From Nemertoderma westbladi (lineage: Eukaryota > Animalia > Xenacoelomorpha): a stretch of 64,000 nt of DNA. The notes below the pieces were generated by a model. The model saw only the letters and a list, made by a program, of their open reading frames with translations. It had not been told where the DNA came from and made no database searches. Positions 670 to 56,705 of the stretch are shown piece after piece (position 1 is the stretch's first letter; every line of letters begins with the position of its first letter). The DNA lies in assembly GCA_032718475.1 (NCBI GenBank), contig JAUCBJ010003600.1, positions 1 through 64,000 of the forward strand. Direction: 5' to 3'. The position numbers were made by a program, and so were the translations under genes.

Positions 670-3600
670 ATGACGACCAATAACGTATCCGATACCGACG
701 AGATGGATCACCACACAGACTCGGAAGCCGACGAGGTACCAAACGTAAAAAACATGACCCGTTGGCTAGGGGCTCTCAAAGGCGGAGTAACCCGAGCGTA
801 TCAACGGATAGAGAAACAACTCAAGGGAATCAAAATCCCCCTCAACGAGATACAAACTCAGCTTCAAAGTATCTGAAATATCCTACAGCGGTACGAAAGA
901 ATGATACAGGCGTACCAAGAGCTAGTTACCTCCACTGATCAGGAAAACTACCCCAAGTTAGAAGAACACGTTGTACATCTAGATGGGTTCCGCAAACAAC
1001 ACCGTAGGACCCTCAGCCTTGTGAGTGGCTATGAAGAACAGTACTACAAGAGAGCTGAAAGAACAGACGCGGAATCAGTACGATCCTCCAGCATCAGGAC
1101 AGCAGTACATCGAAAGAGAACGGGGTCCTCGAGAAACCAGCACTCCAGCGCTCGGAGCGCGGTGTCCGGTTCAGCACACAGCTCTCAAGGGGGTCAACCA
1201 CTCCGAGACCAGCTACGAGAACGGAAGGCATTAGCCCTCAAAGCTCGGATGGAAGATGAGTATGTTCAACTACAAACCGAGCAAGATATATTAGCCGCCG
1301 AAATGCAAAAACAAGAGGCCGAACAAGAGGTCGAACGACGGGTTGAACAACGCAGACAGGAGGTCAGACAGGAGGTCAAACAACGTGAACGAGAGGCCAA
1401 ACAAGAGATCGAACAACGTAAATGGGAAGCAGAAATGCGTAAACAACACGCCGAGGCCCAAGCAATTCTCACTCACAAAAAGAATGCGGATATTGCGAAA
1501 CTTGCGGAATACGAAGCCGCGCTTATAGAACGAGATATTCAACTATACGAGGACTGGGAAAGGGATATAGATCAGAACTATGCACCCATACCGGTACCGG
1601 AATTAGAGAAGTCATTAACGACACCGGCGGTGAAACCTCCGAAACCCGAGTTCCCGCCTATCATACAGTCGGCGCTATCGGCACAAGCGCCGGTGTTCCA
1701 TCCCCCACCGGTTACGCCTAAAAATGAGGAACCGTATTTCCCATCCAACCCCACCATAGCGAGTGTACCCAAGTACGAGCCTGAAAGGGACTCGGAACGG
1801 GACGCCACTCCGCGTTCCAACAACCCGTTTACATCCACACCACAAACTCGTAAACACGTCATCATTAAGACTCCACCTATCATTGATCCATCGAGTATGG
1901 GAGTGAGTGCCAATAACTATAATCCTCCGAGTCACTCCAGTTCCGACGACGTCGGTATTATCCGGGCATTGGAAAACCGCCTTGCCATGCCCAAAATGGA
2001 GATCCGCACCTTCGAAGGAGACCCCGTCGATTACCTCAGATTTAAGAAACGGTTCTTTGCGCAGATTGGATCAACGGACATAGCCGACGCACAGAAACTG
2101 GTATATTTATCGCAATACCTGGGTGACAAACCACGCCGAATCATCGCATGTTTTGAGGGAGGTTCTCATGAGGCATACTATGACGCAAGGAAAACTCTAG
2201 ATAAAAGATACGGAAATACCGGAACTATAATTAATAAAACTCTGGAGAGACTGATACAGGACGCAGGATCACTAGGGGACCCACAGAACATCCAGGAATT
2301 CTCCGACTCTATGAAGGATGCCTACTATACTCTGAAACCCTTAAATAAGGAGAACCAGGTGAACAACATTCTAAATCTCTGACAGATCGCCCGGAAGTTC
2401 CCCGGATGGCTACAAAGTAAGTGGGCCTATAAATGCGTAGATCTCCGGCGCAGACATCCAGATCGAGATCCCAGCTTCCTTGAAATGTCGGCATTCCTGG
2501 ACGATATCTCCGAAGCCATGAATGACTCGATGTTTTCAAAACAGAGTCTCGCCAAGTTGGACGGAATAGAGAGCAACTCCAGGAGTAAGATACCCCCTCC
2601 GAAACCAAGATTCCGCCCCCCACCGGTGAGTACGATGGCCATCACCATGGCCGAGGATTCCAACGATGAAGACTACGAGGAACCGACATCCGCCGAGGAA
2701 TGGGCATGTTATCTCGCGAATTGGGCACCCGAGAGGGAAGGCATCACAAACTCCCTGCTATGTCTCTTCTGCAGAGAGAAACATAAAGTTGAATTCTGCA
2801 GGAAGTTCCAGTTTGCCGAACTCGTCCCACGCTTCGAAGCGATTATGAAACACCGAGGATGCTTCCGGTGTCTTGGAACAGGTCACTACGTTCGGGATTG
2901 CAACCAAAGGTCGTGTTGTGCGGTTTGTAACGACCTACGTCATCACAAGCTCCTCCACATCCCCGCGAACTTTGACTTCAATACCCTCCCCTTTCGGATT
3001 GAAACAAAGCGAAGAGGAGAAACGAACCACGTTTCCAAAGGAACCCGGATTACCCAACGGAGAGAAACCAATCCGTTTAAAATCTCCACCGATAAACCAC
3101 AAGTAACCAACATTTCAGCCACGATTAATCTTATAAATCGCCGCTACATGGTCTTCGCAAAGGTAATCCCGGTAAGGATTCAGGGAATCGGCAAATCCCT
3201 GACGACGCTCGCGTTCCTTGATAACGGGTCTGACGGAACCATCATCGACCGGGATTTCCTCGAGCAACTCGGCCTAGAATATGAACCTTGTAAATGGCCC
3301 ATACAAACCATCACCGATAACAGAGAGGTAGAGTCTGGGGAGGTGCAACTCCAAATGGAAGGAGTAATGAAGGGCTACGAGACAATCAGCCGAGTACGCC
3401 CCCCTCATACAATTGGACCGAGACGATGTAGATCTGAGGTGTCTGCAGTTGGACGTAAACCGCATCACCCTACTGATCGGACTTGATACACCGGAATTAC
3501 ACATACCTACCGGAGATGTCGCCCGATCCATAAAGAAGGATGACGGCTTTTACGCTGAACGAACAATAATGGGATGGACCCTCTGCGGCATCAAGGAAGA

Positions 3601-4050
3601 AACTACTACTGACACCTATACATATCTTCCTAAATGTCAGATTAAAGAAAATGTAACATCCGTGGGATATTGCTCAGCTACAGACCTCGATGAGGATTTA
3701 TTTCTCGAGACCGAAAAAACCCAGCGAGAGATGACTAAATACTTTAATCTAGAGACCCAAGAGTTTGCTGAAAAGAACAAAAACCCGTCCGAGGAAGATC
3801 GATATTGTATGGATGTTCTGGACCAGGCCACGTTCAACAACGGACACTGGTGTTCACCCATGTTATGGAAGGACCCGAATAAACCAATGGCAAACAACGC
3901 TAACATGGCCCTTAGGCGACTTAAGGGCATTCTCCGCCGGCTGAATGACCAACCCGAGATAAAGGAGAAATATAATACCGTAATCCAAGGATATCTCGAC
4001 GATGGATTAGCAGAAATGGTACCACGGAATGAACTGCAAGGAGGCAAAAG
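670..4050 (+). mobile_element. BEL/Pao LTR retrotransposon, degraded gag-pro-(partial RT), 3'-truncated
   Basis: Gag-like PKMEIRTFEGDPVDYLRFKKRF; three BEL-type Cys/His knuckles (CLFCREKH, CFRCLGTGHYVRDC, CAVCNDLRHHKLLH); aspartic protease AFLDNGSDGTII; pre-RT segment ALRRLKGILRRL..YNTVIQGYLDDG. ORFs 529/670-876, 901-2382 and 2485-3486 are one frame broken by TGA stops, then frameshift to 3413-4084. Similarity ends near 4050. Confidence 0.9.
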
Positions 4051-4227
4051 AACATCACTATGCCTGTGCCAAAACATTCCATGATTTATAGACTATGAGA
4101 TAGATTTCCATATGCGCCTGTGGTAAAAAGACTCTATATTTAATAGTTTGTGGCTGTTGTCGATAATCGATTACCACATGACGTAGCAAAACACTCATTT
4201 TATAGCCAAAAACAATTACCAATTGAT

Positions 4228-5445
4228 GGAAAGGAGCAGGTTAAGGCCGAGTTTTCTAACCAAAACAATAAACAGTCACTTTACCAAATCAGGGAAAGGA
4301 GCAGGTTACAGAGACGACAATAAACGATCACTTAACTAATTGAGGGAAAGGAGCAGGTTACAGAGGCGGGATTTTCTAACCAAAACAATAAACGATCACT
4401 TAACTTATTCAGGAAAAGGAGCAGGTTACAGAGGCGGGATTTTCTAACCAAAACAATAAGCGATCATTTAACTAATTGAGGGAAAGGGACAGGTTACAGA
4501 GGCGGAATTTTCTAACCAAAACAATAAACGATCACTTAACTAATTGAGGGAAAGGATCAGGTTACAGAGGCGGGATTTTTTAACCAAAACAATAAACGAT
4601 CATTTAACTAATTGAGGAAAAGGGGCAGGTTACAGAGGCGGGCCTTTCTAACCAAAACAATAAACGGTCACTTTACCAATTCAGGGAAAGGAGCAGGTTA
4701 CAGAGGCGGGATTTTTTAACCAAAACAATAAACGATCATTTAACTAATTGAGGGAAAGGAGCAGGTTACAGAGGCGGGCCTTTCTAACCAAAACAATAAA
4801 CGGTAACTTTACCAATTCAGGGAAAGGAGCAGGTTACAGAGGGGGGATTTTCTAACCAAAACAATAAACGATCATTTAACTAATTGAGGGAAAGCAGCAG
4901 GTTACAGAGACAGGATTTTCTAACCAAAACAATAAACGATAACATTACCAATTGAGAGAAAGGAGCAGGTTACAGAGGCGGGATTTTCTAACCAAAACAA
5001 AAAACGGTCACTTTACCAATTCAGGGAAAGGAGCAGGTTACAGAGGCGGGATTTTCTAACCATAACAAAAAACGGTCACTTTACCAATTCAGGGAAAGGA
5101 GCAGGTTACAGAGGCGGGATTTTCTAACCAAAACAATAAACGATCATTTAACTAATTGAGGGAAAGGAGCAGGTTACAGAGACGGGATTTTCTAACCAAA
5201 ACAATAAATGATAACATTACCAATTGAGAGAAAGGAGCAGGTTACAGAGGCGGGATTTTCTAACCAAAACAATAAACGATAACATTACCAATTGAGGGAA
5301 AGGAGCAGGTTACAGAGGCGGGATTTTCTAACCAAAACAATAAACGATCACTTAACTAATTGAGGGAAAGGAGCAGGTTAAGGCCGGATTTTCTAACCAA
5401 AACAATAAACAGTCACTTTACCAAATCAGGGAAAGGAGCAGGTTA
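4228..5445 (+). repeat. 68-bp tandem satellite, ~18 copies
   Basis: Unit gggaaaggagcaggttacagaggcgggattttctaaccaaaacaataaacgatcacttaactaattga with variants. Confidence 0.95.
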
Positions 5446-5487
5446 TCCGTAACACTACTCAGACAGTAGTCATGATCCATTATTGAT

Positions 5488-6554
5488 AGTAGTAAGATGA
5501 ACCCCTTTTCGGCGACAGTTAGACCCACTTCGCACCTTGGGTGTTAAGTAGGTCATTAATTAATTAAACAATTACTTAATTGGTCGATTAAACAATTAAT
5601 TAATTGTTTAATCAATCGATTTGTATCAAATAATTTTGCCAAAGTCAATTTAATTTGATACAAATCAATCATATAGGGACGCGAGATGAATAAATTGTAC
5701 TACAGCAAACGAAATATACAATACTATAGGCACTGTGCAATACAATATACAGTACATTTGTATTATTTTTGCCATACAGTAGGTAAAGGTAGAATGAAAT
5801 ATAAACATGCGAGCGGGGCCCAAAACATAAATTACCCTCACACGATAATAAAATGGGCCAGTTTGGCCCTGGTTCAATCCCTCAATAATCTACCGCTGCT
5901 CGGGCTCTTATTAGATGTAGCATGACTAACCCCAACATCGAATTTTATACTGTACGCCAACGCGCGGATGGGGCCTGCCACAGAGTTTAAATTATTCAAA
6001 CCTCCAGCTTCGCTATTACATCAATTCGCCCGAGAAATTATAATAAACATCTGCTCTTGCAATAGATTGCATTCTTTCGCATTGTACTTTATGAAGCAGT
6101 CCACGCGCGTATTAGCTCAACAACAAAGCCATCACCCAAACGCCATGTGTCAAATTAACCCCCTACCATCTCTATACTATGGTAGATACTGTAGTTTTTT
6201 GTTTGAAGTAATTTCAGATGCTCTAGTGTAACATTAATTAACATACCAATTCTGACGCAGCAACCCATTCATTACACGCACTTTTCTCCGGCGCACTAAT
6301 GTTTTACATTTAATGAACCCAATGAAATGTGTTTATTATTCCCGCAATCCAATAGCGCGTCTCTCTCCCCCTCTTTTTTATTTCTATTGGTTTCCCTCAA
6401 GCTTCACTTTTATTTTCATTGGTTACCCTTTCCCTTATAAACCCCCATCCATCGCTTTGAACTTTACTTACAAAAATATTATCGACCATTTTACTTTTTA
6501 TTTAATGTTATAATACATTTATTGTTATTCATAATATTATATTTTCTTCAAGAT
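5488..6554 (+). repeat. Polinton left terminal inverted repeat (~1.07 kb)
   Basis: Reverse complement of 20802-21910; near-identical at the tip, imperfect inside. Confidence 0.93.
6345..6445 (+). promoter_or_regulatory. Putative TIR-embedded Pol II promoter (CCAAT/ATTGG boxes and TATAAA); mirrored at ~20915-21010 on the minus strand
   Basis: ccaat at ~6349, attgg at ~6386 and ~6418, cccttataaacccc at ~6432-6445; the same motifs in the right TIR lie upstream of ORF 20803-19064. Confidence 0.5.
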
Positions 6555-6690
6555 TGTTATTCATTATACATTTATTATTATAAATAATATATTGTTGCAA
6601 ACATTTATAACATCAATGTGATTTGATTTTCCTTCTTATTATTCCTAATCGAGCAATTTTCTTTTTCCAATACCACGAATCAATCTGCAG

Positions 6691-6815
6691 GTAAGAAAAA
6701 TAAATTTGTATTTTTATGAATTCGTTTAGTTTTAACATTATTGCCTCAAAATAAATACCAACCCCGCGAAACCTTCCCAAACTTATTATTATTATTTAGT
6801 TTTTTTATTTTATAG
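6691..6815 (+). other. Probable 5'-UTR intron of pPolB
   Basis: CAG|GTAAGA donor at 6691; T-rich tract and TATAG| acceptor ending 6815, 5 nt before ATG 6821. Confidence 0.6.
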
Positions 6816-6820
6816 CAAAC

Positions 6821-9800
6821 ATGCCTATGTCATCAAAATTCGTTGACTGTCCTGTCTGCAATAAGAACATGCGTAGCGATCATCTCAACAAACATCTCGG
6901 AACTCATTTTAAACAATATTCATGCGATTGTTGTGACACCTGGTCCTCTGATAAGAAAACTATGGTTAGCCATCTAGCGCTATGTACGCAAGGTGGGACT
7001 GGGTTCAGATTTATCAATGAAGAAAACACTTGCAAATGTGGCGAATCATTCACTTTATCAGCCTTTAAAGAACACGATTGCTATACGCGACTCTTCTCTC
7101 GGAAACGCAAACAATCTCAAGCGCTTTTGTCACCACCACCTCCACCAAACATTCAATCTCCAAGGGTTGGCCCTTCTACTTCAAGACAACAGACTGGAGG
7201 TTCAACCAACAACCCATTTTTACCATCCGTGAATAGCTCATCCCACAACCGCTTATTTACATATACAAATACGTTACTTACACCACAATTAGATGTAGAG
7301 TTAACACTTAGAGAAAATGAAAGTTATATTTGGGATAGAGTGAGTCAACATTTTAATAATGAATTTAATTTTATAAAAGTTTGGTTAACTATTTCTATCT
7401 TAATGGAAAGGGAGACATCTGAGGGTACTCAATTAGAAACCTTCAGTTTCAAATCAAACGCTTCAAATAATCAAATAACTTCTAATTTAGATTTTGAAAA
7501 CTGGTTTTCGCAAACTATCCAACAAATAGATGAATTAATAGCAGTCTTTGTTTGCATGGGCAGTGGTTGGAATATTGTTTCAATTAAAGAAATCAATTTA
7601 CAAATTTATACCTTCAATCGCAACCCCTATTTCAAAGGACGTGGTGGTGGTTATATTCCTAAAATTTTAGCAAAGAAGCAGTGCATTATTAACTTAGATT
7701 GTCCCATCGGGGAATGTTTTAAGTACGCAGTAGTCGCTGCCGCTTGTTATAAAAAAATTGAAAGAAAGAAACAAAACATTAGTCGATTGTCAACATATAC
7801 TCCATACATGACCATGTTTGATTTCAGTACTGTGAGTTTCCCAGTAGATAGAGTAGTAGGCATCCCATGTTTTTTAGAAAGCAACCCTTTGTACTGCATT
7901 AATTTATTATTTTGGAGTACTGATAACATATTGAGCATTCTATCACAACCAGATTCAGAACATTGCTTCCAAAAAACTGTTTTAAATTTAATGTTTATAG
8001 AAGGAAATCAAAAAAATTCAGGACATTACTGCGCAATTGTCAACCTAAATAGACTTATTAATAAAACAGGACAAGGGGACAAAAAAATTTGTGAGCGTTG
8101 TTTGAGAGCTTTTTATACTATTAACTCATTGCAAACTCATCGGGAACTATGTTATACGAGCAAACGACAATTGGAACAAATGCCTACACCTGACAAATTA
8201 AAAATTAAATTCAATCGATTAGATAAGACTTTATCCCCTCCCTTTTGCATATATGCCGATATTGAAAGTGTTTTAGAACCTACATCAAACCCTAAATTAG
8301 TTCAAAAGCACATTGCTAGCGCCGCCGCATTTTATACAGTACCCAATCGCGAGCTAATAAATCCCCCGCAAACATCATTACAAATGTTTAGAGACACTGG
8401 AACAAACCATGTTATAGACGATTTTCTCACCGCTCTCGAATCACACTGTAGGGAATTATACGAGTGGACTATTTCTGGTACAAACACCAATGTTCCTAAA
8501 CATTTGACTCGAGCACAGCAACAAAATTTTGATAATGCTACAAACTGTTACACTTGTAACTGTTCTCTAACCCCTGATTCATATGGACTGAATCTAGCAG
8601 AAAATCTCAATACTAAAGTTTGTGACCACAACCATCTAACGGGAGCCTATCGTGGGGCGGCATGTGTTAGTTGTAACCGCAAACTTTCTCTTAAACGCAA
8701 TAAATTTTATGTAGTGCTACACAACCTGAGGCATTACGATTCCCATTTAATCTTAAAAGAAGGTCTGAAAAACAGTTCTAGAACTCATTGGAAGATAAAT
8801 GTAATTCCAAAGAACACTGAGACTTATATCAATATAGAAATATCATTTCCCATAGACAAAACCATGCAGACAGCAAATGCAAAAGAAAGTATTGTCATCA
8901 ATCTTCTAGACTCTCTACAGTTCATGACAGCTAGTCTAGATAAGCTCAGTAGTTATCTTACTGCAAACAATTCTGATCTAACAAAAGCTATCCCACACAC
9001 TTTGAAACAAATGAAAAATCTTTATCCCAATATTAGCGATTCCACTATTAAAAATAAAGGTATATTTCCTTATAGCTATATACAATCCATAACAAACTTA
9101 TACGAAACTCAATTACCACCAATCGAGAGTTTCTATAATGATTTACAGCTTGAAGACTGTAGCGAGCATAACTATCAGCGTGCCCAAACTAGTTGGGTTG
9201 AGCTTCAATGTCAAAACATATTTGATTATATGATGGGGTACTTGGCTCTAGATGTCACACTTCTTGCGGATACTTTCCAACAGTTTAGGGAACTATGTTT
9301 CTCCAATTATGGGTTAGATCCTCTGCATTATTATACTTCACCGGGGTTAACGTACGATGCGGCATTGAAATTTACAAACAGTGAAATTGAACTACTATCT
9401 GATGGAACTATTTACGCAGATTTTGAAAATAATATTCGCGGAGGGCTTGTATTTCTGAATACACACTTAGAGGAAGCTAATATACCTGGCAAACCAGAAT
9501 ACAACCCCTGTAAACCAGAAAAATACCTAATTCCTCTCGATGCAAATAACCTTTATGGTTCTGCTCTCTCTCAGAAGCTCCCCTGCAGTAATATGAAAAT
9601 TGTCGATACACCAATAGATCTGGCTACAGTTGATGCCACTGGGTCAGTAGGATATTACTGCATCGTTGACCTCGAATACCCCCGAGAGATCCACGACGAA
9701 ACTGCTGACCTACCACTAGGAGCGGAAAAAATGTCCATTCCCAAGAGCTTTCTTAGTACATACATGCAAGACCTCTGGCAACATTATAATCTCAATGATC

Positions 9801-10853
9801 AAGGGACTTATAAGCAATATAATGAGAAATATAGTAAACTGATTCTTCATCAATTCAAAAAAACTAATTATGGTATTCATATAAAATTACTCCAATTATA
9901 CTTAAAATTAGGACTTCAAATAACACAGGTGCATAAAGTATACTCATTCACTCAAAAATACATATTCAGAGACTATATCTCGTTTAATACATCCAAACGA
10001 CAATCCGCTAAAAATGCATTCGAAGTTTTATTTTATAAACTACTCAACAACTCACTCTATGGGAAAAGTCTTCAGAAGGTACGAGACCGGTTATCATTCC
10101 GACTCTGTACATCCCCAGAACAGTGCGACCTGCTATTATCAAAACCAAATCATGAGCGCTTCATCTCATTCTCCCCCTATCTCAGTGGTCACACTTTTAC
10201 TAAAGAAGTAGCAGTACTCAATCAAGCTGTTAGATCTTTCAAAGCTAGAGATGTATGATTACTATTACTGTAAACTGAAACCTCTCGAAGAAAAGCTGAG
10301 ATGTGAAATTCGAGCCTTAGCCGGGGACACAGACAGTTTCTTTCTTTCGGTTACCGGTGTTGAGCACAAATTATTCCTAGAAGCCATGTTTAACTCCGGC
10401 TTTCTAGACACTTCAAATTACGATCCCTCACGACATCTCTTTACAAATCAAAACAAGGCTTCCTTAGGTTTTTTGAAAGATGAAAGTAGAGGTCTATTAT
10501 ACAAATCATTTGTATTTTTGAAACCGAAAATGTATTCATTCGAGGCATACGACGCGCAACCAAAGCGGACTTGCAAAGGAATTTCAAAAAATATTGTAGC
10601 CAAGCAATTAACATATAAACACTATTTAGACTGTTTTATCAACGAATCAACAGATTACACAAACAATACAATATTTACTTCTAAGGAGCATCAAATGTTT
10701 ACAGGGAGAATAAAAAAAAAAACATTAAGTCTCTGGGATACAAAATCATTCTGGATGACGAAATATTACAGTAGACCATATGGCCACTATATTACAGGAT
10801 TAACTAAACCAGCAAAAAAAACTGTAATACCACCATATTTAGTTGCAGAATAA
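6821..10853 (+). pseudogene. Protein-primed DNA polymerase B (Polinton pPolB) with N-terminal C2H2 finger and endonuclease-VII-like insert; frameshifted near 10230
   Basis: ExoI YADIES, ExoII HNLRHYDSHLI, ExoIII YLALDVTLLAD, motif A LDANNLYG, motif B KLLNNSLYGK, motif C AGDTDSF (ORF 10251-10853); DHNHLTGAYRGAACVSCN. A short deletion joins ...VLNQ to out-of-frame LLDLSKLEMYDYYY. Confidence 0.95.
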
Positions 10854-11379
10854 AATACCATACAAAGCAAGCAGCGGATCAACACCAATTCAAATAATCA
10901 ATCGTCAATATACAGCTCAAACTGAATTTCCAATTGATATAATCAAAGTTTCTCAACAACTAAAAGGTCAGATGCGACAAAAACCAAAAATGTTTGTGTA
11001 TAAGACTGGATCTGCGACAATTATGCTATTCCCAACTGGTTCAATAACAATAGTGGGTCCATGTAAAAATGTTTGTAGTGATTTACTTTATCTGAAACAA
11101 TGTACCAACATACTAATTAAGAAAATTAAATTAAATACAGTGACCAGACTAATTAAGTTACCATCTCTTAATTTTAAATCATTAAGTAAAAAGTGTGGAC
11201 ATCATTTTGTAAACAATGTAAAGGTATATATTGATTTTACACCGGAGCTCTTTTGTGGAATTCGGTTGTATATTGGGCGATGTTATTTCAGTGTCTTTCA
11301 CTCAATGAAAGTTATAAGTATGTGTCCTGTTGGTGATTTTGAAGAAGCTCTTATTATATTATTTAGTTTATTGAATTAA
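10843..11379 (+). CDS. TATA-binding-protein (TBP)-like two-repeat protein; start uncertain (TTG or spliced)
   Basis: Repeat 1 IQIINRQYTAQTEFPIDI...ATIMLFPTGSITIVG; repeat 2 IKLNTVT...FTPELFCGIRL...FSVFHSMKVI; compare TBP KIQNMVGSCDVKFPIRL / YEPELFPGLIY / TALIFSSGKMVCTG. Confidence 0.7.
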   Translation: MQNKIPYKASSGSTPIQIINRQYTAQTEFPIDIIKVSQQLKGQMRQKPKMFVYKTGSATIMLFPTGSITIVGPCKNVCSDLLYLKQCTNILIKKIKLNTVTRLIKLPSLNFKSLSKKCGHHFVNNVKVYIDFTPELFCGIRLYIGRCYFSVFHSMKVISMCPVGDFEEALIILFSLLN

Positions 11380-11915
11380 TAAGTAAAATTATCTCTCAAT
11401 ATACTATATGTCATTATACTGTATGTGCGGTTTTATATATTTATGTGATTATACTGTCTCTCAATATACTATATGTGATTATATTATCTCTCAATATACT
11501 ATATGTCATTATACTGTATGTGTGGTTTAATATATTTATGTGATTATACTGTACGTGGTTCTATATATTCATGAAAGATATAGTTTTATTAAATTTATGT
11601 AAAAAATATATTGATTTATATTTTTAATAACATCTTACCTTGAGAACAATTCTCCCAAGTAATGGGGACCCACCTCTCCTCACCAAACCCTTCCCGAAAA
11701 AAAGTCCGTAAGGCCAAGTTTTACTGCACTTGTTCTCCATTGAGTGATTAGTTGTTAAACTGGTGAATTCAATATATAAATTTAAATATTTACTAAAGCC
11801 GCTAGATGGCCTGCATTTGTGATGCGAATATTAGTTTCATATTATACTGTATAAACGTTAAAAGTCAATTATTATTTTAATAAATATAATAATAATTGTA
11901 TTATAAAAGGAAAAC

Positions 11916-12545
11916 ATGATGAATATAGTAGATATGCGGTTTCGTTTTGGTATTACAATATTAATAGCCGGTCCTAGTGGTAGTGGAAAAACTTCTTTTT
12001 TGGAGAAAATGTTATTAAATAGGAAATTGATCTTTAACGAAACCCCAAACAGTATTACTTGGTTTTATGGACAGACGAAACCAATAATTAAAGGGGTTAA
12101 TATTACCGCTTTAAATGAAATTCCAGAACACTTTAATGAAAATGTGAAAAACCATTCTATCATTATAATCGACGATTTGATGACAGAACTACAAAATTCC
12201 AAACAAGCGACTACGCTATTTACTAAAGTAGCTCGACATACAAATTCATTGGTAATTTTTCTCACTCAAAACCTTTATCAAAAAGGAGGAGAATCTAGGA
12301 CCCGTTCCATTAATTCCACTTATTTCTTATTGTTCAAAAATCCAAGGGATCAGACACAGATAAGAACTTTAGCCTATCAGATGAAACCAAATACCCCCAA
12401 ATTCTTAATCGCGGCATTTCAAGACGCAACAAAGGTTCCCTTTTACCCACTTCTTATTGATTTTCATCAATTAACGGATGATAGCCTTCGTATACGTGGG
12501 TATTTATTTACAAATGAACATTGTGTTTATCAACCCATGTCGTAA
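11916..12545 (+). CDS. A32/FtsK-like genome packaging ATPase
   Basis: Walker A GPSGSGKT, Walker B IIIIDD, ARH..FLTQN, FKNPRD motifs typical of Polinton ATPases. Confidence 0.95.
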   Translation: MMNIVDMRFRFGITILIAGPSGSGKTSFLEKMLLNRKLIFNETPNSITWFYGQTKPIIKGVNITALNEIPEHFNENVKNHSIIIIDDLMTELQNSKQATTLFTKVARHTNSLVIFLTQNLYQKGGESRTRSINSTYFLLFKNPRDQTQIRTLAYQMKPNTPKFLIAAFQDATKVPFYPLLIDFHQLTDDSLRIRGYLFTNEHCVYQPMS

Positions 12546-12558
12546 TATACGTAGAAGA

Positions 12559-12696
12559 ATGCTTCTATTAGCAATTGTCTGTTATTTAGTTATATTATAC
12601 TTATTTGTGGTTTATCATCGACAAAGGTTTCTTAAATTTCTTAATATTATAGAACAAGTATGGAACTTAATATACGAAAGTATAGGAAAGAACTAG
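12559..12696 (+). CDS. Small putative single-pass membrane protein of the Polinton
   Basis: MLLLAIVCYLVILYLFVVY hydrophobic helix followed by basic residues; fills the gap between ATPase and the next gene. Confidence 0.35.
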   Translation: MLLLAIVCYLVILYLFVVYHRQRFLKFLNIIEQVWNLIYESIGKN

Positions 12697-13001
12697 AATT
12701 TTTGAAAAATAGCAACGCATTAGCGCAGGGAGCATTTATTCGAAAAAAAGCTAGTAGCGAATTAATACGACTTCTCGTTAATATTACACTGAATACGCTC
12801 TATGGGAATATAAATATTGATGGAAAGATTGTTAAAAAATTGAAGCCATATAAGAAATATATGAAGCGATTGAAATCGAAAAATTCAGTTTCACTTCAAA
12901 GACGTTCTCTCTCTCAGGCTGGGGGGTTCCTTCCACTTATTTTGCCACTGTTGATAGGCGCCACAAACATTGCCACAACTGTTGCCACAGCGTTAACATA
13001 A
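12660..13001 (+). CDS. Basic core/virion protein with adenovirus pX-like hydrophobic C-terminus
   Basis: Lys/Arg-rich body, then QAGG|FLPLILPLLIGA, resembling GG|FLPxLIP protease-cleaved tails. Confidence 0.75.
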   Translation: MELNIRKYRKELEFLKNSNALAQGAFIRKKASSELIRLLVNITLNTLYGNINIDGKIVKKLKPYKKYMKRLKSKNSVSLQRRSLSQAGGFLPLILPLLIGATNIATTVATALT

Positions 13002-13003
13002 CC

Positions 13004-13186
13004 ATGTCATTCAAGAAACTATATTTAATAACCCCCGAACAACATGATAGGTTGCAACCAACACATTTGAAAACTAAACCTTAAATTAAAGAAACAAAGA
13101 AAAAAGGTCAAAATAAACGGACAATAAACGATAGAAGAAAAGTGTTGAAACTGTTTGATTATACGCGTCGCAAATCGCGAAAATAA
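13004..13186 (+). pseudogene. Small basic Polinton ORF with internal stop
   Basis: MSFKKLYLITPEQHDRL...*...RRKSRK; in-frame TAA at 13082-13084; its stop overlaps the next ATG (TAATG). Confidence 0.4.
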
Positions 13187-13255
13187 TGTCTTGGTTAAAA
13201 AAACTTTCAGTAACTTGCAATTTTCGTTGTCTGTGCAATTCTAGCAGTGTTACCT

Positions 13256-14787
13256 ATGGCTATGATCAACAAGATGGTAGAAAAACGCTTAGTCAAAGCT
13301 TACTACAATCCTTCAAGTGTTGCAGGGTTTTCCACCGTAGGAAAGCTAGAAAAAGAGACAGGGGTCAATCCAAAACTCGTGAAAAGATGGCTCCAAAGTC
13401 AGCAAACCTACACATTGCATGCCCCAGCGAGGCGTCTGTTTCCCACAAGCCGAATGTATTTTTATGGAATTAGTGACACCATTCAGGCAGATTTAATTGA
13501 TATGCAAAAATATCGCGCAACAAACTCAGGTTATGGATATATGTGGCTGGCCACGAGAAAAGGGACCTTATGTTACCGGAGGTCGATTTTGAGTTATTAG
13601 GCCTATGAGATGCAGAATTTTACAGAGATTTTAACAAAAAAAAACGGTGTCTCAATATCTATTTCCAAAAAAAAGTTATAGCGATTTATGTGAAGGTGAT
13701 TCGGGTAGCTCTATTCCTACCTACCCGTATTAGTACCTTTTATTAAAGTCCTAAATTCAGACATGAAAACACTAAAACAGTGTTATATACAACACTGCAA
13801 CATCTTATATTGCTTCCTGTAATTAGTTCTTTCCTAGGTATCTTGAATATCAGACCCAATTTGAATTTCCCGCATCGTTTTATACATTTCTAAATTGATA
13901 ATCCAATTAAATTTGTTCAAAAATAGAGGGAAACTTTAAACACGATTATCTCAGAATCAGGTTTTGCGACATAAGGTCCCTTTTCTCGTGGCCAGCCACA
14001 TATTCTAACCGCAATCAACTGTTTTAGTAAGAAGGGGTGGGCATTACCATTGAAACGGAAGACTGGTATTGAAATTAAACATGCACTACAGTCTATTTTT
14101 ACTGAAGAAGTACCACGTAATTTATGTACAGATCAAGGGTTGGAATTCGACAATAAAGTTGTACTCAATTACTTGAAAATGAAAAAAGTTAAATATTATA
14201 CAACACGATCGCAGTTCAAAGCAGCCATTTGCGAAAGGTATAATAGAACATTGAAAACAAAGATGTATAAAATTTTTAGTAGAAGAGGTAACCATAAGTG
14301 GCTTGCTATTCTACCAAAAATTGTATACTCTTATAATAATTCTATACATAGATCTATTGGAATGCCCCCAATTCAAGTCAATAAGTCGAATGAAGATAAC
14401 GTGAGAAGAAAACTCTATGGAAATTTAGCTAAAATCATTGTAACAAAACCCAAATTGAGAATAGGTGACAATGTGCGACTTAATATAGCTAAAACGGCGT
14501 TTGAAAAAGGTTATACAAAAAATTGGACTGGTGAGGTGTTTACTGTGAAACGTATAAGACTAGATCGTTTTCCTCAGCCTATGTATCATATAATAGATTC
14601 AGTTGATAGAGAAATAGAAGGAAAATTTTACCCTCACGAATTGCAAAAGGTTACACAAACAACTGATATTCACCCAATCGAGTCCATTTTGAAGTCTCGA
14701 ATAAAAAATGGTCGGAAGGAATTCCTTGTAAAATTTAAAAACTATAAACGGAATTCTTGGTTGAACGAGTCCCAACTACGTAAATAA
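13256..14787 (+). pseudogene. Retroviral-like (RVE) integrase with C-terminal chromodomain, interrupted by a MITE
   Basis: AYYNPSSVAGFS, QADLIDM, TDQGLEF, AAICERYNRTLK (DDE), FEKGYTKNWT, IESILKSR..EFLVKFKNY..SW. Removing the insert restores GYGYILTAINCFSKKGWALPLK. Confidence 0.95.
13542..14000. mobile_element. Non-autonomous DNA transposon (MITE) inserted in the integrase
   Basis: TIR tgtggctggccacgagaaaagggaccttatgt / acataaggtcccttttctcgtggccagccaca; TSD TA (or ATAT if ends are 13543-13999). Confidence 0.93.
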
Positions 14788-14797
14788 ATCAACAAAA

Positions 14798-15624
14798 ATG
14801 AATAACTATATAACTTTATTCTCAAATGGACCTACAAACAAATTTCCTGATAACACCCTTTCGAAATTTACGGTTGATCTACCCTATACAATCAATCTCA
14901 GTGGTAATGTAGAAGTGGGACTATCTGAAATTCAATACTGTTCCTCATTCTATAATATACGTCAACAATCTCTGTTTACAATTTATTATGGAGATGGTCA
15001 TCGCAAGTTGTTGTATTTGAACCAGGACTATATACGAGTGTAGAAGCCATTATTAATAAAATCAATCAACAAATTGATCACCCGAAGTGGCCCCAAATTC
15101 AATATTTCAAACACTCAAATAAAATTGAGCTCGCTACTTCGCAACACTTTTCTTTTGAAATTACTGGAGATTTGATTACAATACTCGGTTTTGAGGAGTT
15201 TATGCAGGATTATGATCCGAGGGATGTACCTTATCTAGCTAATTGGTATGATTATTGGAGTGTAAATGTTAGTGAATTTGGCTCTTTAACATTCAAACAG
15301 CAACCGGGACAGCGTGCTCAACTTAGAGGGATTTGTCCCTTTTCTTGCGATTTAGTCTTAGGGCGACATAATTTGTTTATCTATAGTGACATTACTTCTC
15401 ATGTGACTGTAGGAAATACGACGGCACCATTATTACGCACGGTACCTCTCGAACTTGAGCATAATAAAGTTATAACACGCGAATTTAAAAAAATTTATTA
15501 CAGACCAGTTGCTAGAACAATTGTTAATCAGATAAATATTGAATTACGCAACAAAAAAGGAGAACTAATATTATTTAATGGAGGTGCAACAATAATTACC
15601 CTACACTTAAAAAGTAAGCCATAA
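14798..15624 (+). pseudogene. Minor capsid protein (penton, single jelly-roll) copy 1, frameshifted
   Basis: YITLFSN..FPDNTLSKFTVDLP..L.G.VEVGLSEIQY N-terminus and LFIYSDI..VGNTTAPLLRTV..INIELRN..IITLHLK C-terminus, split across two frames. Confidence 0.85.
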
Positions 15625-16417
15625 TGGAGAAAATATAATAATTTACCCTCGAATTCTTCACCTAAACGATTTCTATTAAATCAACCTTCTAACTTTAATG
15701 TGGAACTATCTGAACCATTGCGTTTTAGTGGAAAGTGGATGGTGGGTTTGTCAGAAATTGTTTACCTCTCCTCGGTTCATAATTTAGAAGATACATTCAT
15801 TTATATTCGGAGTTTACAAGGAACTAAAAGAAAATATATAATACCATCTGGTTGCTATACTGATGTGGAGGCGTTGCTTACACAGCTAAATATAGATGGT
15901 CTCAATTCCCATTTAGAAATAAGACAAAATGAGCTTTATGACAACATTAGTATTCAGTTTATCGGTGAAAGTAAAGTTGTTCGTTTTTATGGAAATAAGT
16001 TGATTGAGTTACTTGGATTGCGGGGATTAGAAAATGAGTATTATGTTAATAAAAATAAATTTCTTGTTAGCCTAAAAAATGATTATCTACAAATAACGCA
16101 AAGGGGGGAAATAGAGGGTGATTCTGATATTACATATTCAAAAAGCAGCAAATGTTTTTATGGGAAACATTAGTATATTTTCAAATATTTGCGGAAATGA
16201 GATTGTTGGAAATCAACTGAAACCCCTCTTAAGATCTATTCCTTATCAAGGAGATTATGGTAAGCTTGTTCATCATGAATTCACAAATATTAATTATAAA
16301 TCCATTGATATGCAAAATATAGAAACAATAAATATACAGTTAAAAAATGATCGAGATGAATTCATAAAGTTTAATAATGGTACTGTAATTGCGACATTAA
16401 TTTTGAAACGCCAATAA
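15624..16417 (+). pseudogene. Minor capsid protein (penton) copy 2, frameshifted
   Basis: KYINLPSNSS..NQPSNFNVEL..GKWMVGLSEIVY ... IVGNQLKPLLRSI..INIQLKND..VIATLILK; frameshifts near 15630 and 16150. Confidence 0.85.
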
Positions 16418-16448
16418 ACGATAAATAAGGAAATATATTCAGGAAGCA

Positions 16449-17063
16449 ATGAGTTATAAAGATTATTATCAAAGGAGTTTGTAGAAAACATTACAGAGAA
16501 CACTTTATAAGGTTATTTGCGGTGGTGTTAAAAATAAACAGACTGGGACGATGAAGGGTCTCAGCTCAGAAATTGTTACACCCCCTTCCATAATGAGGCG
16601 TCGATTACAATTATTAGAATGGAAACGAAAGGCGGGGGGAGGACTACCTTATTTTGAGGGGGGATATAGACATTGACACATGAACAGTCGCACAGTTTTT
16701 GTGAGACACGGTCAACGAGGTAAAGGTATCCTTGGAAATATTATTCGGATTGCAACTAAAGTAGTGCCCAAAGTTATTAAGCCCGTCGCGTGAGCAGCAA
16801 TTCGCAAAACTCTTCGCACTCCTTTTGTAAAAAAGACAGGGAGAAAAATTGTCAAACGAGTAATTCGTCGGGGAATTCCACAACTTAAAAAGATTGGAAA
16901 GAAATTAGCAGAACAGGCTCTCGCCAGCTCAAAACCTTCCACTAAACGAGTAGCTCATAAAATTATTGAAGAAGTTTTAAACGCAGCTGATGGGAGGTCA
17001 ATAAACGAAACTCGCAAAAAACGCAAATCAAAAAAGAATCACTGTCCAGATATTTTTGGTTAA
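16449..17063 (+). pseudogene. Basic Polinton core-like protein (QRGxG motif, ends PDIFG) with in-frame stops
   Basis: Single frame: GGGLPYFEGG...QRGKGILGNIIRIATKVVPKVIKP...RKKRKSKKNHCPDIFG*, broken by one TAG and two TGA codons; alternative ATG at 16593. Confidence 0.75.
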
Positions 17064-17077
17064 ACTAAATAATAACA

Positions 17078-18328
17078 ATGGAAGAAACCACGGAAGAACT
17101 AAATTTATTTAATCGCAGTAATGTTCAGACTGTAATTGAAGAAAGTTTTGAGCAGGAAATATACCCTGTGACTACATTGGGAGAGGGCACATCAGTTATA
17201 GATTTCATGATTGAAAAGTCAGAAGATTACTATACGATAGGAAATGAAACAACACTACAATTAGTATATCGTGTTGTAACAACAACACGACCTGACAATG
17301 GTGCAGTTTATCAAACACCACTAAGCCTCTCTACTCTAATTTCAAACATTAGTGTTTTGATTAATGAGCGGGAGGTAGAGTCTAATACTGCAAACTATCC
17401 CTATAAAGCTTTCCTAAAAGCGGTCTTACTTAACGATCAGAGTACAAAAGAAACGATTTTAGCTGCCAAAGGGTTTGCAGAACAAGAAGCATTTGGTGTT
17501 CCTGTAGACTTTGCTGCAGCTGCTCATTTGGAAAGTAAACCATATTATGTTCAGGGGTCTCTATTTGTTGACCTTTTTGAACAGGCTAAATTTATCCCAC
17601 CCAAAACTAGTATAAGAATTAGATTAACAAGAGCTACAAATGCATTTAACTTAGTATGTATTGCAGCTGTACAAGAGCCTCGAATCAATATATCTAATGC
17701 TTTGTTGAAAATTAAACGAGTAAAATTGGATCCATATATACGTCAACAACATATAGAACAATTAAAAATAGGAGATTATATTTATCCAATTATACAGAAT
17801 GAGGTGACAACCTTTACTATAGCAAATGGTCAACAATCTCATGTGAGGGAAAATTTGTTTACAAGCAAGAATGTACCTCGCTTTGTTAATATTGTCATGG
17901 TTCGAAATGACTCTTACAATGGAAACTTAAGATCTAATTCACTATTGTTTGATCACTTTAATGTGAATTACTTACAACTTACGCTGGATGGTAAGGTAAT
18001 TGGAGGTGTGACATATAAACCAAATTTTGCTACTGGACAATATATTAATGAGTATTGCGCCAGTCAAAAAAACCTGCTATCTATAACCAGAGGTACAAAC
18101 AACGGCATTACTCCCACTAGATTTCGTGATTTATATCCAATATTTTCTTGGAATTTATCCCCCACGGGATTTCTTGATGAAGACGAACGAAACCCACATC
18201 AAATAGGCAATGCTAGATTAGAGATTGCTTTCTCAGCTCCTTTACAAAATACAATTAACGTTATTATGTGGGTGGGATATGATAGAACTGTGAATATCAG
18301 CAATGTCGGATCAGTAACTATTTTCTAG
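17078..18328 (+). CDS. Major capsid protein (double jelly-roll), intact 416 aa
   Basis: ELNLF, YPYKAFL..LL, DLFEQAKFIPP, GNLRSNSLLFDHFNV, GNARLEIAFSAPL motifs of Polinton MCP; sits before the protease. Confidence 0.92.
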   Translation: MEETTEELNLFNRSNVQTVIEESFEQEIYPVTTLGEGTSVIDFMIEKSEDYYTIGNETTLQLVYRVVTTTRPDNGAVYQTPLSLSTLISNISVLINEREVESNTANYPYKAFLKAVLLNDQSTKETILAAKGFAEQEAFGVPVDFAAAAHLESKPYYVQGSLFVDLFEQAKFIPPKTSIRIRLTRATNAFNLVCIAAVQEPRINISNALLKIKRVKLDPYIRQQHIEQLKIGDYIYPIIQNEVTTFTIANGQQSHVRENLFTSKNVPRFVNIVMVRNDSYNGNLRSNSLLFDHFNVNYLQLTLDGKVIGGVTYKPNFATGQYINEYCASQKNLLSITRGTNNGITPTRFRDLYPIFSWNLSPTGFLDEDERNPHQIGNARLEIAFSAPLQNTINVIMWVGYDRTVNISNVGSVTIF

Positions 18329-18338
18329 AAAGAAAAAC

Positions 18339-18767
18339 ATGTTGAACTCATATGATTTGAATAATTTCCCAATAGGAGAACATTATCGTGGTTCTTTTGC
18401 CATTGATCAATTACCAGCAAAGGATGGCTCTAAAATGAGCTTCATTTCAAATACTCAAGCCGCTCATTTACCTGGTATGCACTGGGTCGCTGCTTTTATG
18501 AATGAAAATATAGGTGAATACTTTGATTCATTTGGAGTGTTCCCCCCGGCTCGTATAGAAGACTGGTTGTTGCGTAATACAATAAAATGGACAAGGACAC
18601 GAAAAGTGGTTCAACACCCTCTAAGGACAAGTTGTGGGGGATACTGTTTATATTACTTATCTGAACGATCAAAAACTGACACGCCTCTACGCAAGTTTGG
18701 AACAGACTTGAAACAAAATGAAAAGATACTTGCATGTTGGTTGCGGAACAAAGCCATAATGAATTGA
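18339..18767 (+). CDS. Adenain-like cysteine maturation protease
   Basis: NTQ..HLPGMHWVA (His), EYFDSFG (Asp), QHPLRTSCGGYCLYYL (Gln/Cys). Confidence 0.95.
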   Translation: MLNSYDLNNFPIGEHYRGSFAIDQLPAKDGSKMSFISNTQAAHLPGMHWVAAFMNENIGEYFDSFGVFPPARIEDWLLRNTIKWTRTRKVVQHPLRTSCGGYCLYYLSERSKTDTPLRKFGTDLKQNEKILACWLRNKAIMN

Positions 18768-19063
18768 TATTATTAATTGTGTTACAATGTGTTATATCTT
18801 ATGTGTTACAATGTGTTATATCTTAAATGTTACTCTGCTATATGTATATGTGTTATGTTATAAATATATATTTCAATGTTGCTATATTAAAAATATGAAA
18901 ATAGTCGACTATATTTCATTTTTCTTTTTCAACTTTGGATAAATAATATAAGGGTTAAACAAAGAACATCAAAACAGTTAAACAGTTACATTTAACATTT
19001 AGACAGTAAACAGTAACAGTAAACATTTACATGACCAGTTACAATAGACAAGTAACATAAAGT

Positions 19064-20803
19064 TTAGTTTATATCCACAGCATCTAGCTTTATCTTTTTC
19101 TGTTCTATTGGAGGATAGTGAGCTAATTTTCGTTTTACAATTTCCATCGAATATCTTTTAGAGACGTTGGGGGAATCATTAGGGTGAAATAGATTGAGGT
19201 GGATCTGCTTGGGGAGGAAAACTGCATCTTTTAGTGTGCGTTTGAGAAAGTTGATGCAACACTCAACAGCATAGTTTGAAGGTAGGGTTAATTTGTTTGT
19301 TGTCTTCAGGTTGACAATAATTGTTTCTGATGGTGTATGTTGAATGTGTATAAGGGGGGTGAGATAGTAATGGGAGGAAGTGGATTGTTGAATGAGATGA
19401 AAGTTGGAGAAATCACTCGCTTTTATATTTAAACCATCGGTAAACTGAAACGTAGTTGATTTCAAATCTTTTTTGATGACAGGCCATATGGCAACATAAG
19501 CTTCACCTTTGAATGAATAAATGAAAGCCGCTACTGATTCGTATAAATTAAGACACTGGTGATTAGGTAGTTGTAGTTGCTTTGGTTCATAATCACTATT
19601 GTTAGCCAATGACTTTAGTTCAGAGAGTGCTTCTCGGGCGCGATCTGTATTGTCAATAGAGAACATGTAGTCATAGCGTCTGTCAGAAATTTCGAGGGTT
19701 TCGCAGCTGTAAGAGGTATAAATTTTTATTCGATCAGAAATTAATTCTTCATGGTTGACTTCATCATAGCATTCGTATCCTTTGACCGCAGAATCGAACC
19801 ATGAAATTTTAAGAAGTTCATTTCTTGTGAGTAAAAGTGCATCTCTTGTGGAAACAATAACTTTGTTTGAATCAACCTCAACTCCGCTCGCGATTGCAAT
19901 ATTTCTTTTATTATTAATATTTGTGATATAACCAAAAGTAGAACTATCGAAAGAAACATAGTTCTCTGGCTCTAAGACAATGTGCGAGATTGGATTAATG
20001 TAAGGACGACAAATGTTTATATAATGTTGTAGTAAAGCAGCCGCAGTGTCTGAGATGGTTAACCAACCCCCATCTACTGTATCTTCTAGTTGTATTAAAT
20101 CAATAGGTTTCAGTGGGGATGTTTTCGAATAACGAACAACTTTAAAATTAAAACCAAAATAATGTGCTTTGCTGTTGTTGTAGAAACAGGTTATTTCATT
20201 CAATTGTTCAATAAAAGTTAGTACGTCATATCCAAACAGTTTGAAGAAACGAGATTCATCTTTGAGGGGGTGAATCGAGGCGTTCCAAATAATTAAAAGA
20301 ATTGAGTTTGAAATATTATGAAAATCAAACAGACACTCATCAACAAAAAAGGAAGCTTTGAGTGTTGACATACCAAGGAGCTTGTTTGCAGATTCTTGTG
20401 TTACATTGCTGTGGATATATTCAACAACCGGTTGAGGTATTACAAATGTTTCTAATGAGGTTGTCAGATTGAATGTTATATTCGATTCTGATTTGTGCAG
20501 TTTGAAACCATGGTTTGCGGAATGAAATTTATCATTATTTAGAGTTTGATATTGACCATCCTTCAACTCAAAGCAGGATCGTAGAATGAAATGTGCATAA
20601 TTTGCTGGAATGAGTTGGGGTTGGTTAGATGAAGTGGTAACCGTCATTGGAAAGCGTTTGTTTGAAGGATCAAAATATAAACCGAAAGAGTTGTCTGAGA
20701 GAGATATTTGATTTTCGTTGGAAACAATTTTTACTTGATTTTCGTTGGAAACAATTTTTACTTGAGGGAAGTTGAACTTTTGAAGGAGTTGAGCTTGAGC
20801 CAT
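19064..20803 (-). CDS. 579-aa Polinton protein with putative PC4-like (ssDNA-binding/co-activator) repeats and C-terminal NLS
   Basis: Intact ORF; LNLYESVAAFIYSFKGEAYVAIW...DGLNIKASDFSNF resembles PC4 (FKGKVLIDIR..GISL..EQW); weaker similar units upstream; KRK..KKIKL at the end. Confidence 0.6.
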   Translation of the reverse strand: MAQAQLLQKFNFPQVKIVSNENQVKIVSNENQISLSDNSFGLYFDPSNKRFPMTVTTSSNQPQLIPANYAHFILRSCFELKDGQYQTLNNDKFHSANHGFKLHKSESNITFNLTTSLETFVIPQPVVEYIHSNVTQESANKLLGMSTLKASFFVDECLFDFHNISNSILLIIWNASIHPLKDESRFFKLFGYDVLTFIEQLNEITCFYNNSKAHYFGFNFKVVRYSKTSPLKPIDLIQLEDTVDGGWLTISDTAAALLQHYINICRPYINPISHIVLEPENYVSFDSSTFGYITNINNKRNIAIASGVEVDSNKVIVSTRDALLLTRNELLKISWFDSAVKGYECYDEVNHEELISDRIKIYTSYSCETLEISDRRYDYMFSIDNTDRAREALSELKSLANNSDYEPKQLQLPNHQCLNLYESVAAFIYSFKGEAYVAIWPVIKKDLKSTTFQFTDGLNIKASDFSNFHLIQQSTSSHYYLTPLIHIQHTPSETIIVNLKTTNKLTLPSNYAVECCINFLKRTLKDAVFLPKQIHLNLFHPNDSPNVSKRYSMEIVKRKLAHYPPIEQKKIKLDAVDIN

Positions 20804-21910
20804 CTTGAAGAAAATATAATATTATGAATAACAATAAATGTATTATAACTTTAAATAAAAAGTAAAATGGTCAATAATATTTTTGTAGTAAGTAAAGTTC
20901 AAAGCGATGGAAGGGGGTTTATAAGGGAAAGAGTAACCAATGAAAATAAAAGTTAAGCTTGTGGGAACCAATAGAAATAAAAAGAGAGAGAGAGACGCGC
21001 TATTGGGTTGAGGGAATAATAAACACATTTCATTGGGTTAATTAAATGTAAAACATTAGTTAGGATGTGAAATGGGGTGAATTGAGAAGTGGGGGAGTGC
21101 GCTGGAGAAAAGTGCATGTAATGAATGGGTTGCTGCGTCAGAATGGGTATGTTAATTAATGTTACACTAGAGCATCTGAAATTACTTCAAACAAAAACTA
21201 CAGTAACTAGTATAGAGAAGGTTGGGGGTTAATTTGACACATGGCGTTTGGGTGATGGCTTTGTTGTTGAGCTAATACTGCTTCATAAAGTACAATGCGA
21301 AAGAATGCAATCTATTGCAAGAGCAGATGTTTATTATAATTTCTCGGGCGAATTGATGTAATAGCAGAGCTGGAGGTTTGAATAATTTAAACTCTGTGGC
21401 AGGCCCCATCCGCGCGTTGACGTACAGTATAGGATTCAATGTTGGGGTTAGTTATGCTACATCTAATAATAGCCCAACGGCTGCAGATTATTGAGGGATT
21501 GAACCGGGGCCAAACTGGCCCATTTTATTTTCTTGAAAGGGTAATTTATGTTTTGGGCCCCGCTCGCTTCTTTATATTTCATTCTATCATTCTATTGCAC
21601 GGCAAAAATAATATAAATGTACTGTATATTGTATTGCACAGTGCCTACAGTATTGTATATTTCGTTTGCTGTAGTACAATTTATTCATCCCGCGTCCCTA
21701 TCTGATTGATTTGTGTCATATTAAATTGCCTTTGGCAACATTATTTGATACAAATCGATTGATTAAACAATTAATTAATTGTTTAATCGACCAATTAATT
21801 AATTGTTTAATCGACCAATTAATTAATTGTTTAATTAATTAATGACCTACTTAACACCCAAGGTGCGAAGTGGGTCTAACTGTCGCCGAAAAGGGGTTCA
21901 TCTTACTACT
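20802..21910 (-). repeat. Polinton right terminal inverted repeat (~1.1 kb)
   Basis: Reverse complement of the left TIR, with an extra insert at ~21061-21096 and an extra copy of the ccaattaattaattgtttaat unit. Confidence 0.93.
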
Positions 21911-22925: not shown

Positions 22926-23107
22926 CCCCCCCCCCCCTCTCCCTCCCCAATGAAACATACTAACTTACACCCCACACCCCCCCCCCCCCCCTCCCTATAG
23001 CTTTTATATATTAATATGTTATTAATATTTACATAATTTCTTTATTATGACTAAATATAAATAACTGGGACACAATCCAATTAAATCGCATCAATTAAAC
23101 CGAATAA

Positions 23108-50472: not shown

Positions 50473-50477
50473 TTTAG

Positions 50478-56705
<6,228 letters not shown>

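Follow-up and report, generated by a model that had tools for sequence, protein, structure and literature searches.

Judged by sequence profiles and a predicted fold, the open reading frame (ORF) at positions 10843..11379 of the forward strand encodes a divergent, two-lobed TATA-binding protein (TBP), and it lies within a Polinton/Maverick element of Nemertoderma westbladi. All positions refer to the window, the whole 64,000-nucleotide stretch of DNA that was analyzed. The Polinton TBP is a real, selected gene that is probably spliced from an upstream leader. We further propose, with slightly better than even confidence, that this trimmed and divergent protein is likely made early through splicing and likely reads an ATAAACG-type box, so that the packaging, integrase and capsid genes are transcribed by host RNA polymerase II (Pol II).

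The element occupies 5488..21910 (16.4 kb), begins with AGTAGT, ends with ACTACT and is flanked by a 6-bp target-site duplication, ATTGAT, at 5482-5487 and 21911-21916. Polintons are defined by long terminal inverted repeats (TIRs), AG...CT ends and a 6-bp target-site duplication, and all three are present here. The TIRs are about 1 kb long (left, 5488..6554 on the plus strand; right, 20802..21910 on the minus strand) and align with 997 identities, 47 mismatches and 88 gap columns. The corresponding empty-site joint, 5480 to 21910, occurs in all four runs that contain the element. A 68-bp satellite (4317-5445, 16.6 copies) stops about 40 bp before the left end, and farther upstream, at 2383-4084, lie broken gag-protease-RT-like ORFs with a CCHC knuckle, which we take to resemble a BEL/Pao LTR retrotransposon. 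Downstream of the element, the window holds a 57-bp tandem repeat (23103-23512, 7.2 copies, 98%) and a 12/18-bp minisatellite array that is very long and contains inverted blocks (50380-63000).

The gene content is likewise that of a Polinton. The plus-strand ORF at 6816..10853, with a predicted acceptor at 6815|6816 and an ATG at 6821, is presumably pPolB on account of its family-B motifs; Pfam recognizes Endonuclease_7 and zinc fingers in it and nothing else. It is followed on the same strand by the packaging ATPase (11916..12545; Pox_A32, E 2.8e-5, above the cut-off), an rve integrase with a chromodomain (13274..14787; Pfam score below the cut-off), two putative minor capsid genes (14798..16417), a putative major capsid protein, MCP (17078..18328; 416 aa, open and conserved in 13 related loci), and an adenain-like protease, PRO (18339..18767), whose Peptidase_C5 match is weak (E 0.01) and below the Pfam cut-off. 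The capsid ORFs gave no match to Pfam jelly-roll domains or to any other Pfam family. We assume the minor capsid labels from gene order and the MCP label from size and gene order, and the ORF order is conserved in related loci. The minus strand carries an ORF of 579 aa (19064..20803) that belongs to no known family and sits directly behind the right-TIR promoter; it had no Pfam match, no usable Atlas match and no tblastn match in 119 related loci, and is a candidate second early gene served by the mirror TIR promoter. No TFIIB was matched among the ORFs scanned with Pfam.

The TBP-like ORF follows pPolB, overlaps its final codons and comprises 178 codons from stop to stop, with a ttgcag acceptor at 10843-10848 and an exon that starts at 10849. 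The initial annotation had called it an intact ORF with two TBP-like repeats; the ORF and both quoted motifs are present, but there is no start codon before lobe 1. Its identification as a TBP is borne out by both sequence profile and predicted fold. Alone, the window protein reaches the Pfam TBP family (PF00352) with E=0.0013 and 19.0 bits, against a gathering cut-off of 22.9, and over lobe 1 only. An Atlas search placed TBP clusters in 29 of its 30 matches (best score 0.95, with low recognition value), and the single sequence retrieved no match from the PDB by phmmer and none of 33 candidates in a word-indexed homologue search. A full HMMER scan yielded one relative, P0001, which is 28% identical to the window protein and led to six further sequences (P0002-P0007) and a canonical-like TBP (P0008). 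The profile built from the window protein together with P0001-P0003, which contains no canonical TBP, matched 38 PDB sequences, including 35 TBP chains, with a best E of 7.8e-10 and an alignment spanning both lobes.

The fold prediction agrees with this assignment. Built from a 9-row alignment that includes the canonical-like P0008, the model has a pLDDT of 84.8 and a pTM of 0.76. All Foldseek rows listed, to rank 44, were TBPs, with a TM of about 0.7 to isolated chains, and VIA-align superposed about 160 residues on TBP (Z 15.5, rmsd 2.4), the next fold scoring Z 8.0. The viral structures matched were nucleocytovirus TBPs in BFVD, such as Heterosigma akashiwo virus A0A1C9C511 and EsV-1-53. 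These results bear out the suggested fold and Foldseek check, with a canonical-like TBP included in the alignment. Folding the single sequence gave a pLDDT of 48 and no structural match; the fold result thus depends on the alignment, and the match of the four-sequence profile, which covers both lobes, provides the independent support.

Compared with cellular TBPs (PF00352; PDB 7o4i_O, 1qn3, 1cdw, 1mp9), the window protein is predicted to share the two-lobe saddle of about 160 residues and, by alignment, the equivalents of N69, F116, F190 and F207, numbered as in yeast according to Table 1 of PMC12529657, together with the F-x-P-E-L-F stirrup of lobe 2. Three of the four DNA-wedging phenylalanines are therefore retained in the alignment. 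The near-universal L5.1 phenylalanine of each lobe, as defined in PMC7221094, corresponds to F61 and F150 counted from 10849 (the F116 and F207 equivalents) and is invariant. The differences are considerable: the protein is only 13-17% identical to cellular TBPs, the P191 equivalent is a cysteine, S-G-K of lobe 2 has become S-M-K, there is no N-terminal extension, and the F99 position lacks an aromatic residue, reading K/R-P-x-M in all five family members (the window protein, P0001-P0003 and the locus L027 described below). In the C-lobe stirrup, where human E284 and E286 contact TFIIB, the first glutamate is replaced by threonine in the window protein (T-P-E), whereas P0001-P0003 and L027 keep both (E-P-E, in FEPE or YEPE). 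Helix H2 is short and its basic run is gone, so that, as far as the alignment tells, the basic helix gripped by host regulators is absent. Loss of this N-lobe helix and of regulator contacts is described for other viral TBPs in PMC7221094, and in PMC12236790 the intercalations are assigned to positions 2 and 8.

To place the gene among Polintons, an ATPase-motif scan of 6 of the 64 parts of the collection delivered 119 loci, 112 of them with an ATPase match. As to the suggested search for TBP across Polinton collections, one of the 112 other Polinton fragments, L027, carries a TBP-like ORF, and the remaining 111, which are partial, show none. The L027 gene has an E of 3.7e-18 and exceeds the PF00352 cut-off (Pfam 1.3e-12, 47.8 bits); it is 27% identical to the window protein over 123 columns. 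L027 is a 2.2-kb fragment and the sole TBP-bearing member of the comparison set; its TBP gene stands beside a Polinton ATPase, and CTATAAACAAA precedes both of its plus-strand genes. Between its TBP gene and its ATPase lies a 191-aa plus-strand ORF of no Pfam family (L027:845-1420), which is divergent from the TBP gene and preceded by TATAAACA. In another Polinton locus (L075:2-892, plus strand), a RING/zinc-finger ORF, presumably TRAF-like, is found upstream of the ATPase. None of the 13 loci with both pPolB and ATPase shows a TBP, and all 13 are partial; apart from L027, the comparison loci as a whole are partial contigs, often GC-richer, that may lack a TBP. Searches for TBP relatives in viral contigs, in metagenome contigs (with the TBP profile) and in phages found none, and neither did searches for MCP and ATPase relatives in viral contigs.

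A motif particular to the family is common to the window protein and four relatives at 22-28% identity. In a TBP tree of 33 rows (26 of them archaeal, chosen out of 98 that had been extracted; the tree contains no named eukaryotic TBP, and L121 and L122 yielded no ORF for it), the five family members grouped at 100/100, and the window protein formed the longest branch, at 6.5 changes per column. The tree says nothing about the TBP donor because long branches meet at the family node.

The window copy itself is probably dead because pPolB, the integrase and the minor capsid genes are also broken, and function would then belong to its sister copies. Specifically, pPolB is frameshifted near 10212-10258, the integrase is interrupted by an insert of about 461 bp, and both minor capsid genes are frameshifted. 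The insert (13538-14000) has terminal inverted repeats of about 19 bp, is MITE-like and is skipped by contigs of three runs (X1-X3). That the TBP-like ORF is open while its neighbours are broken, as had been pointed out, carries little weight because open frames are also found for the ATPase, the putative MCP and PRO, and likewise in the pX-like ORF and the 579-aa minus-strand ORF. Three runs cover this site, and in each of them the sister copies carry a start codon a short way behind the acceptor, which indicates that the missing ATG was lost in the window copy. A TTG start, proposed as one solution, is consequently unnecessary.

Between copies, the ORF differs largely at synonymous sites. 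The TBP exon shows 12 differences and no indel. Ten of these differences were classified, and 8 of the 10 are synonymous, where 21-34% would be expected (P 1e-4 to 4e-3), in a small sample pooled over three runs. Counting the two omitted 5' sites as non-synonymous leaves the bias at P 9e-4 to 0.02. The same bias argues against the view, to which we return below, that the gene is a functionless, captured host TBP paralogue and that the junction, sequenced from a DNA library, arose by genomic deletion across a 5-bp microhomology.

Evidence on expression comes from the four runs (X1-X4) that contain the element, none of which is recorded as RNA and one of which, X4, is tagged 'DNA?'. In X1-X3, all 30 bins are covered at high depth and variant contigs are numerous, as a multi-copy family would produce. 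X4 covers 26 of the 30 bins and is the sole run with a joint from the leader region into the TBP ORF; the joint is absent from the three deep runs X1-X3. In X4, a read-through contig (depth 14.7) and the joined contig (14.6) lead into one body contig (29.9). The joined contig forms an exact GT..AG junction between the donor at 6690, just inside of the left TIR, and the AG at 10848 that serves as acceptor, and its loose letters, compared by eye, match the leader up to that donor. This supports the suggestion of splicing into the neighbourhood of 10849 from an upstream leader, which is non-coding and provides no start codon. A coding leader was considered and rejected: an in-frame stop lies upstream of the donor, one ATG opens a two-codon ORF, and the other ATG falls within a 74-nt segment missing from sister copies. 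That segment of the leader region (6605-6678) is absent from the sister copies in X1-X3.

The 3' part of the leader exon is placed at 6525..6696 (plus strand), with its 5' end estimated from the length of the joined contig and the splice donor CAG|GTAAGA at 6690|6691, the only AGGTRAG on the plus strand of the element. At the other side (10801..10848), a branch-point-like TAACTAA at 10801 stands 47 nt upstream of the TTGCAG| acceptor used by the joined contig. The junction carries a 5-bp TGCAG microhomology, and 319 microhomology deletions are possible between the leader and acceptor regions, of which just one, the observed junction, gives GT..AG. X4 has no cover over 7062-9277 and 11536-11600, a pattern compatible with RNA that proves nothing because contigs can be filtered out. 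A 30-bp tandem repeat behind the TBP stop (11392..11557, plus strand), where X4 cover ends, is likely the 3' UTR. Based on one contig in one run of guessed type, we consider it highly probable that the joint reflects splicing in an RNA library.

Acceptor-like AGs also occur at 6815, 11909 and 18328, 5-10 nt before the ATGs of pPolB, the ATPase and PRO, and TBP has the same arrangement. Several genes may receive the TIR leader by splicing, much as in the adenovirus major late unit. A second X4-only joint, 18031 to 18339, has 24 letters on its short side, is not GT..AG and ends at the protease ATG, and TATAAACC occurs at 18014 within its 5' side.

The leader region is preceded by a predicted Pol II promoter in the left TIR (6386..6443, plus strand), with ATTGG (CCAAT) boxes at positions 6386 and 6418, followed by TATAAACC at 6436. 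The right TIR carries the same inward-facing promoter, with two CCAAT boxes and TATAAACC, which faces the 579-aa minus-strand ORF. Within the block of genes behind TBP, another word recurs: ATAAACG is present at six sites on the plus, or coding, strand and none on the minus strand, before the ATPase, the integrase (twice), the first minor capsid gene, the ORF at 16449 and the MCP. In order along the plus strand, TATAAACG at 11850..11857 is 66 nt away from the ATPase ATG and lies shortly ahead of the AT-rich stretch 11870-11915 named in the initial annotation; two AATAAACG words at 13112..13130 lie 161 and 150 nt before the integrase ATG; TATAAACG at 14743..14750 is followed 55 nt later by the first putative minor capsid gene; AATAAACG at 16413..16420 lies 36 nt before the broken ORF at 16449 and overlaps the preceding gene's stop codon; and AATAAACG at 17000..17007 lies 78 nt before the putative MCP ATG, with further TAAACG words at 16943 and 16978. 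Spacing from ATAAACG to the start ranges from 35 to 161 nt.

After merging, five of five sites fall 20-165 nt before a start, in windows that make up 22% of the block. The family-wise P of this placement is 0.013 among 7-mers and 0.077 among 6-mers, for a box picked after a first unbiased scan that lacked significance (P 0.07-0.6). The word precedes 5 of the 11 downstream gene starts and is missing from the other 6. TAAATA was rejected as a box, with P 0.07-0.2 and equal frequency on the minus strand. A canonical-looking TATAAAA stands 14 nt before the ATPase. Among relatives, the region before the ATPase has TATAAA[AT] in 19 of 46 and TATAAAC in 1 of 46, namely L027, and ATAAAC stands before 3 of 98 scored starts, the background being 4.4%. 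According to its title, PDB entry 1qn3 shows wild-type TBP on a C(-25) TATA variant. We take this variant to read TATAAACG, so host TBP might itself read two of the ATAAACG sites.

Together, these elements suggest a scheme in which a host-type CCAAT-CCAAT-TATA promoter in the TIR would drive the leader. The contigs contain the join from 6690 to 10849, which would represent RNA splicing, and the leader would pass either to pPolB, through the predicted acceptor at 6815, or to TBP, making both early genes. The trimmed TBP would then bind the ATAAACG box and recruit host TFIIB and Pol II to the virion block. The placement of the box lends circumstantial support to a redirection of Pol II to late promoters, and a late-promoter role is likely. 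A stronger version can be put forward tentatively, and we lean against it: a lineage of Polintons would possess the smallest viral early-to-late switch known, in which mirror TIR promoters feed one leader whose splicing partner is either pPolB or a re-specified TBP that works as a single protein. The N-lobe of TBP touches the 3' half of the TATA box; in the Polinton protein, a rebuilt N-lobe would read the altered 3' half of the ATAAACG box and bring host TFIIB and Pol II to the virion genes, with no further viral factor involved.

The same observations allow a somewhat unlikely reading in which the viral TBP is expressed and has no private box. It would serve all element promoters, including that of the TIR, or act as a decoy for host factors, and would escape control by host Mot1, NC2 and TAF1, while the ATAAACG words would be poly(A) signals or weak host-type TATA boxes. 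The promoter of the TBP gene has the same ATAAAC core within TATAAACC; four of the six sites read AATAAACG and so contain the AATAAA poly(A) signal, which ranks third among the positionally enriched 6-mers; and the protein has lost the basic helix of its N-lobe, a loss shared with other viral TBPs (PMC7221094). However, poly(A) signals would not be expected to conserve a CG after the core, to stack as three TAAACG words before the MCP, or to show the change from a canonical TATA in relatives to TATAAAC in the lone TBP-bearing one.

Alternatively, the saddle may work outside initiation and bend DNA at the AT-rich ends while the element is packaged or replicated by protein priming. TBP has its leader and 3' end in common with pPolB, TAAACA words are repeated near both termini (5565, 5589 and their mirrors), and the TFIIB and regulator surfaces are degenerate in the window copy, all of which would suit such a role. 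We consider it quite unlikely, given that the four relatives keep both stirrup glutamates, a surface known for TFIIB binding (PMC7221094), and that the enriched word sits before genes, away from the termini. The functionless paralogue introduced above is the least probable explanation and, in our view, very improbable. The window copy lacks a start codon and forms the longest branch of the tree, and the 'DNA?' tag of X4 and the TGCAG microhomology would fit a genomic deletion; in addition to the synonymous bias, this account is opposed by the family-specific motif in four relatives as little as 22-28% identical, one of them beside a Polinton ATPase, and by a junction that is the single GT..AG candidate in 319 and is absent from three deep runs of the same organism.

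The reading we prefer, in which the Polinton TBP acts on late promoters, has known systems to be compared with. KSHV ORF24, a late TBP mimic of the beta/gamma-herpesvirus type that uses TATTWAA, follows the proposed logic as presented in PMC12529657: a viral TBP on a variant TATA steers host Pol II to late genes. That protein differs in being large, with a Pol II-binding N-terminal domain, all four phenylalanines and a need for five further viral activators (PMC12529657), whereas the window protein, at about 175 aa, amounts to the saddle and comes from a 16-kb genome in which no partner was identified. The predicted model is the saddle alone, and neither it nor the Pfam search of the ORFs revealed a Pol II-binding domain or viral activator partners. 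The herpesvirus late TBP can serve as a working analogy for the Polinton protein. Nucleocytoviruses mostly encode their own RNA polymerase, while none was seen in the element. Their TBPs share a divergent viral TBP fold and, as described in PMC7221094, the loss of N-lobe regulator contacts. According to the same source, viral TFIIB is present in almost all viruses with TBP, in contrast to the Polinton, in which no TFIIB was detected.

The Polinton TBP is a variant of this viral TBP strategy, and its precedent is a label. The legend to Fig. 5 of Starrett et al. 2021 (PMC8502044) labels a TBP in a MELD virus, which has an adintovirus-like PolB. As here, a TBP-like gene is placed in a mid-size Polinton-like genome; unlike here, the legend offers a label without expression, promoter or mechanism, and does not establish that the two belong to the same family. 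TBP and TATA were not found in the supplementary file of PMC8502044, and terms for a Polinton TBP had no match in 10.64898/2026.10.13.758929 or PMC12220804. A literature search that left subscription papers and Repbase aside returned no other report on a Polinton TBP and no paper on Polinton promoters.

These findings bear on whether and how Polinton capsid genes are timed, for which a conserved, spliced TBP and a matching box offer a small and concrete test system. A TBP that naturally lacks one wedging phenylalanine additionally bears on the re-engineering of TATA specificity. The viral TBP strategy, seen in herpesviruses and giant viruses, would reach down to an endogenous element of 16 kb. 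Should the minimal switch prove true, it would attest directly to a timed virion programme in Polintons, and it would provide a natural orthogonal TBP-promoter pair.
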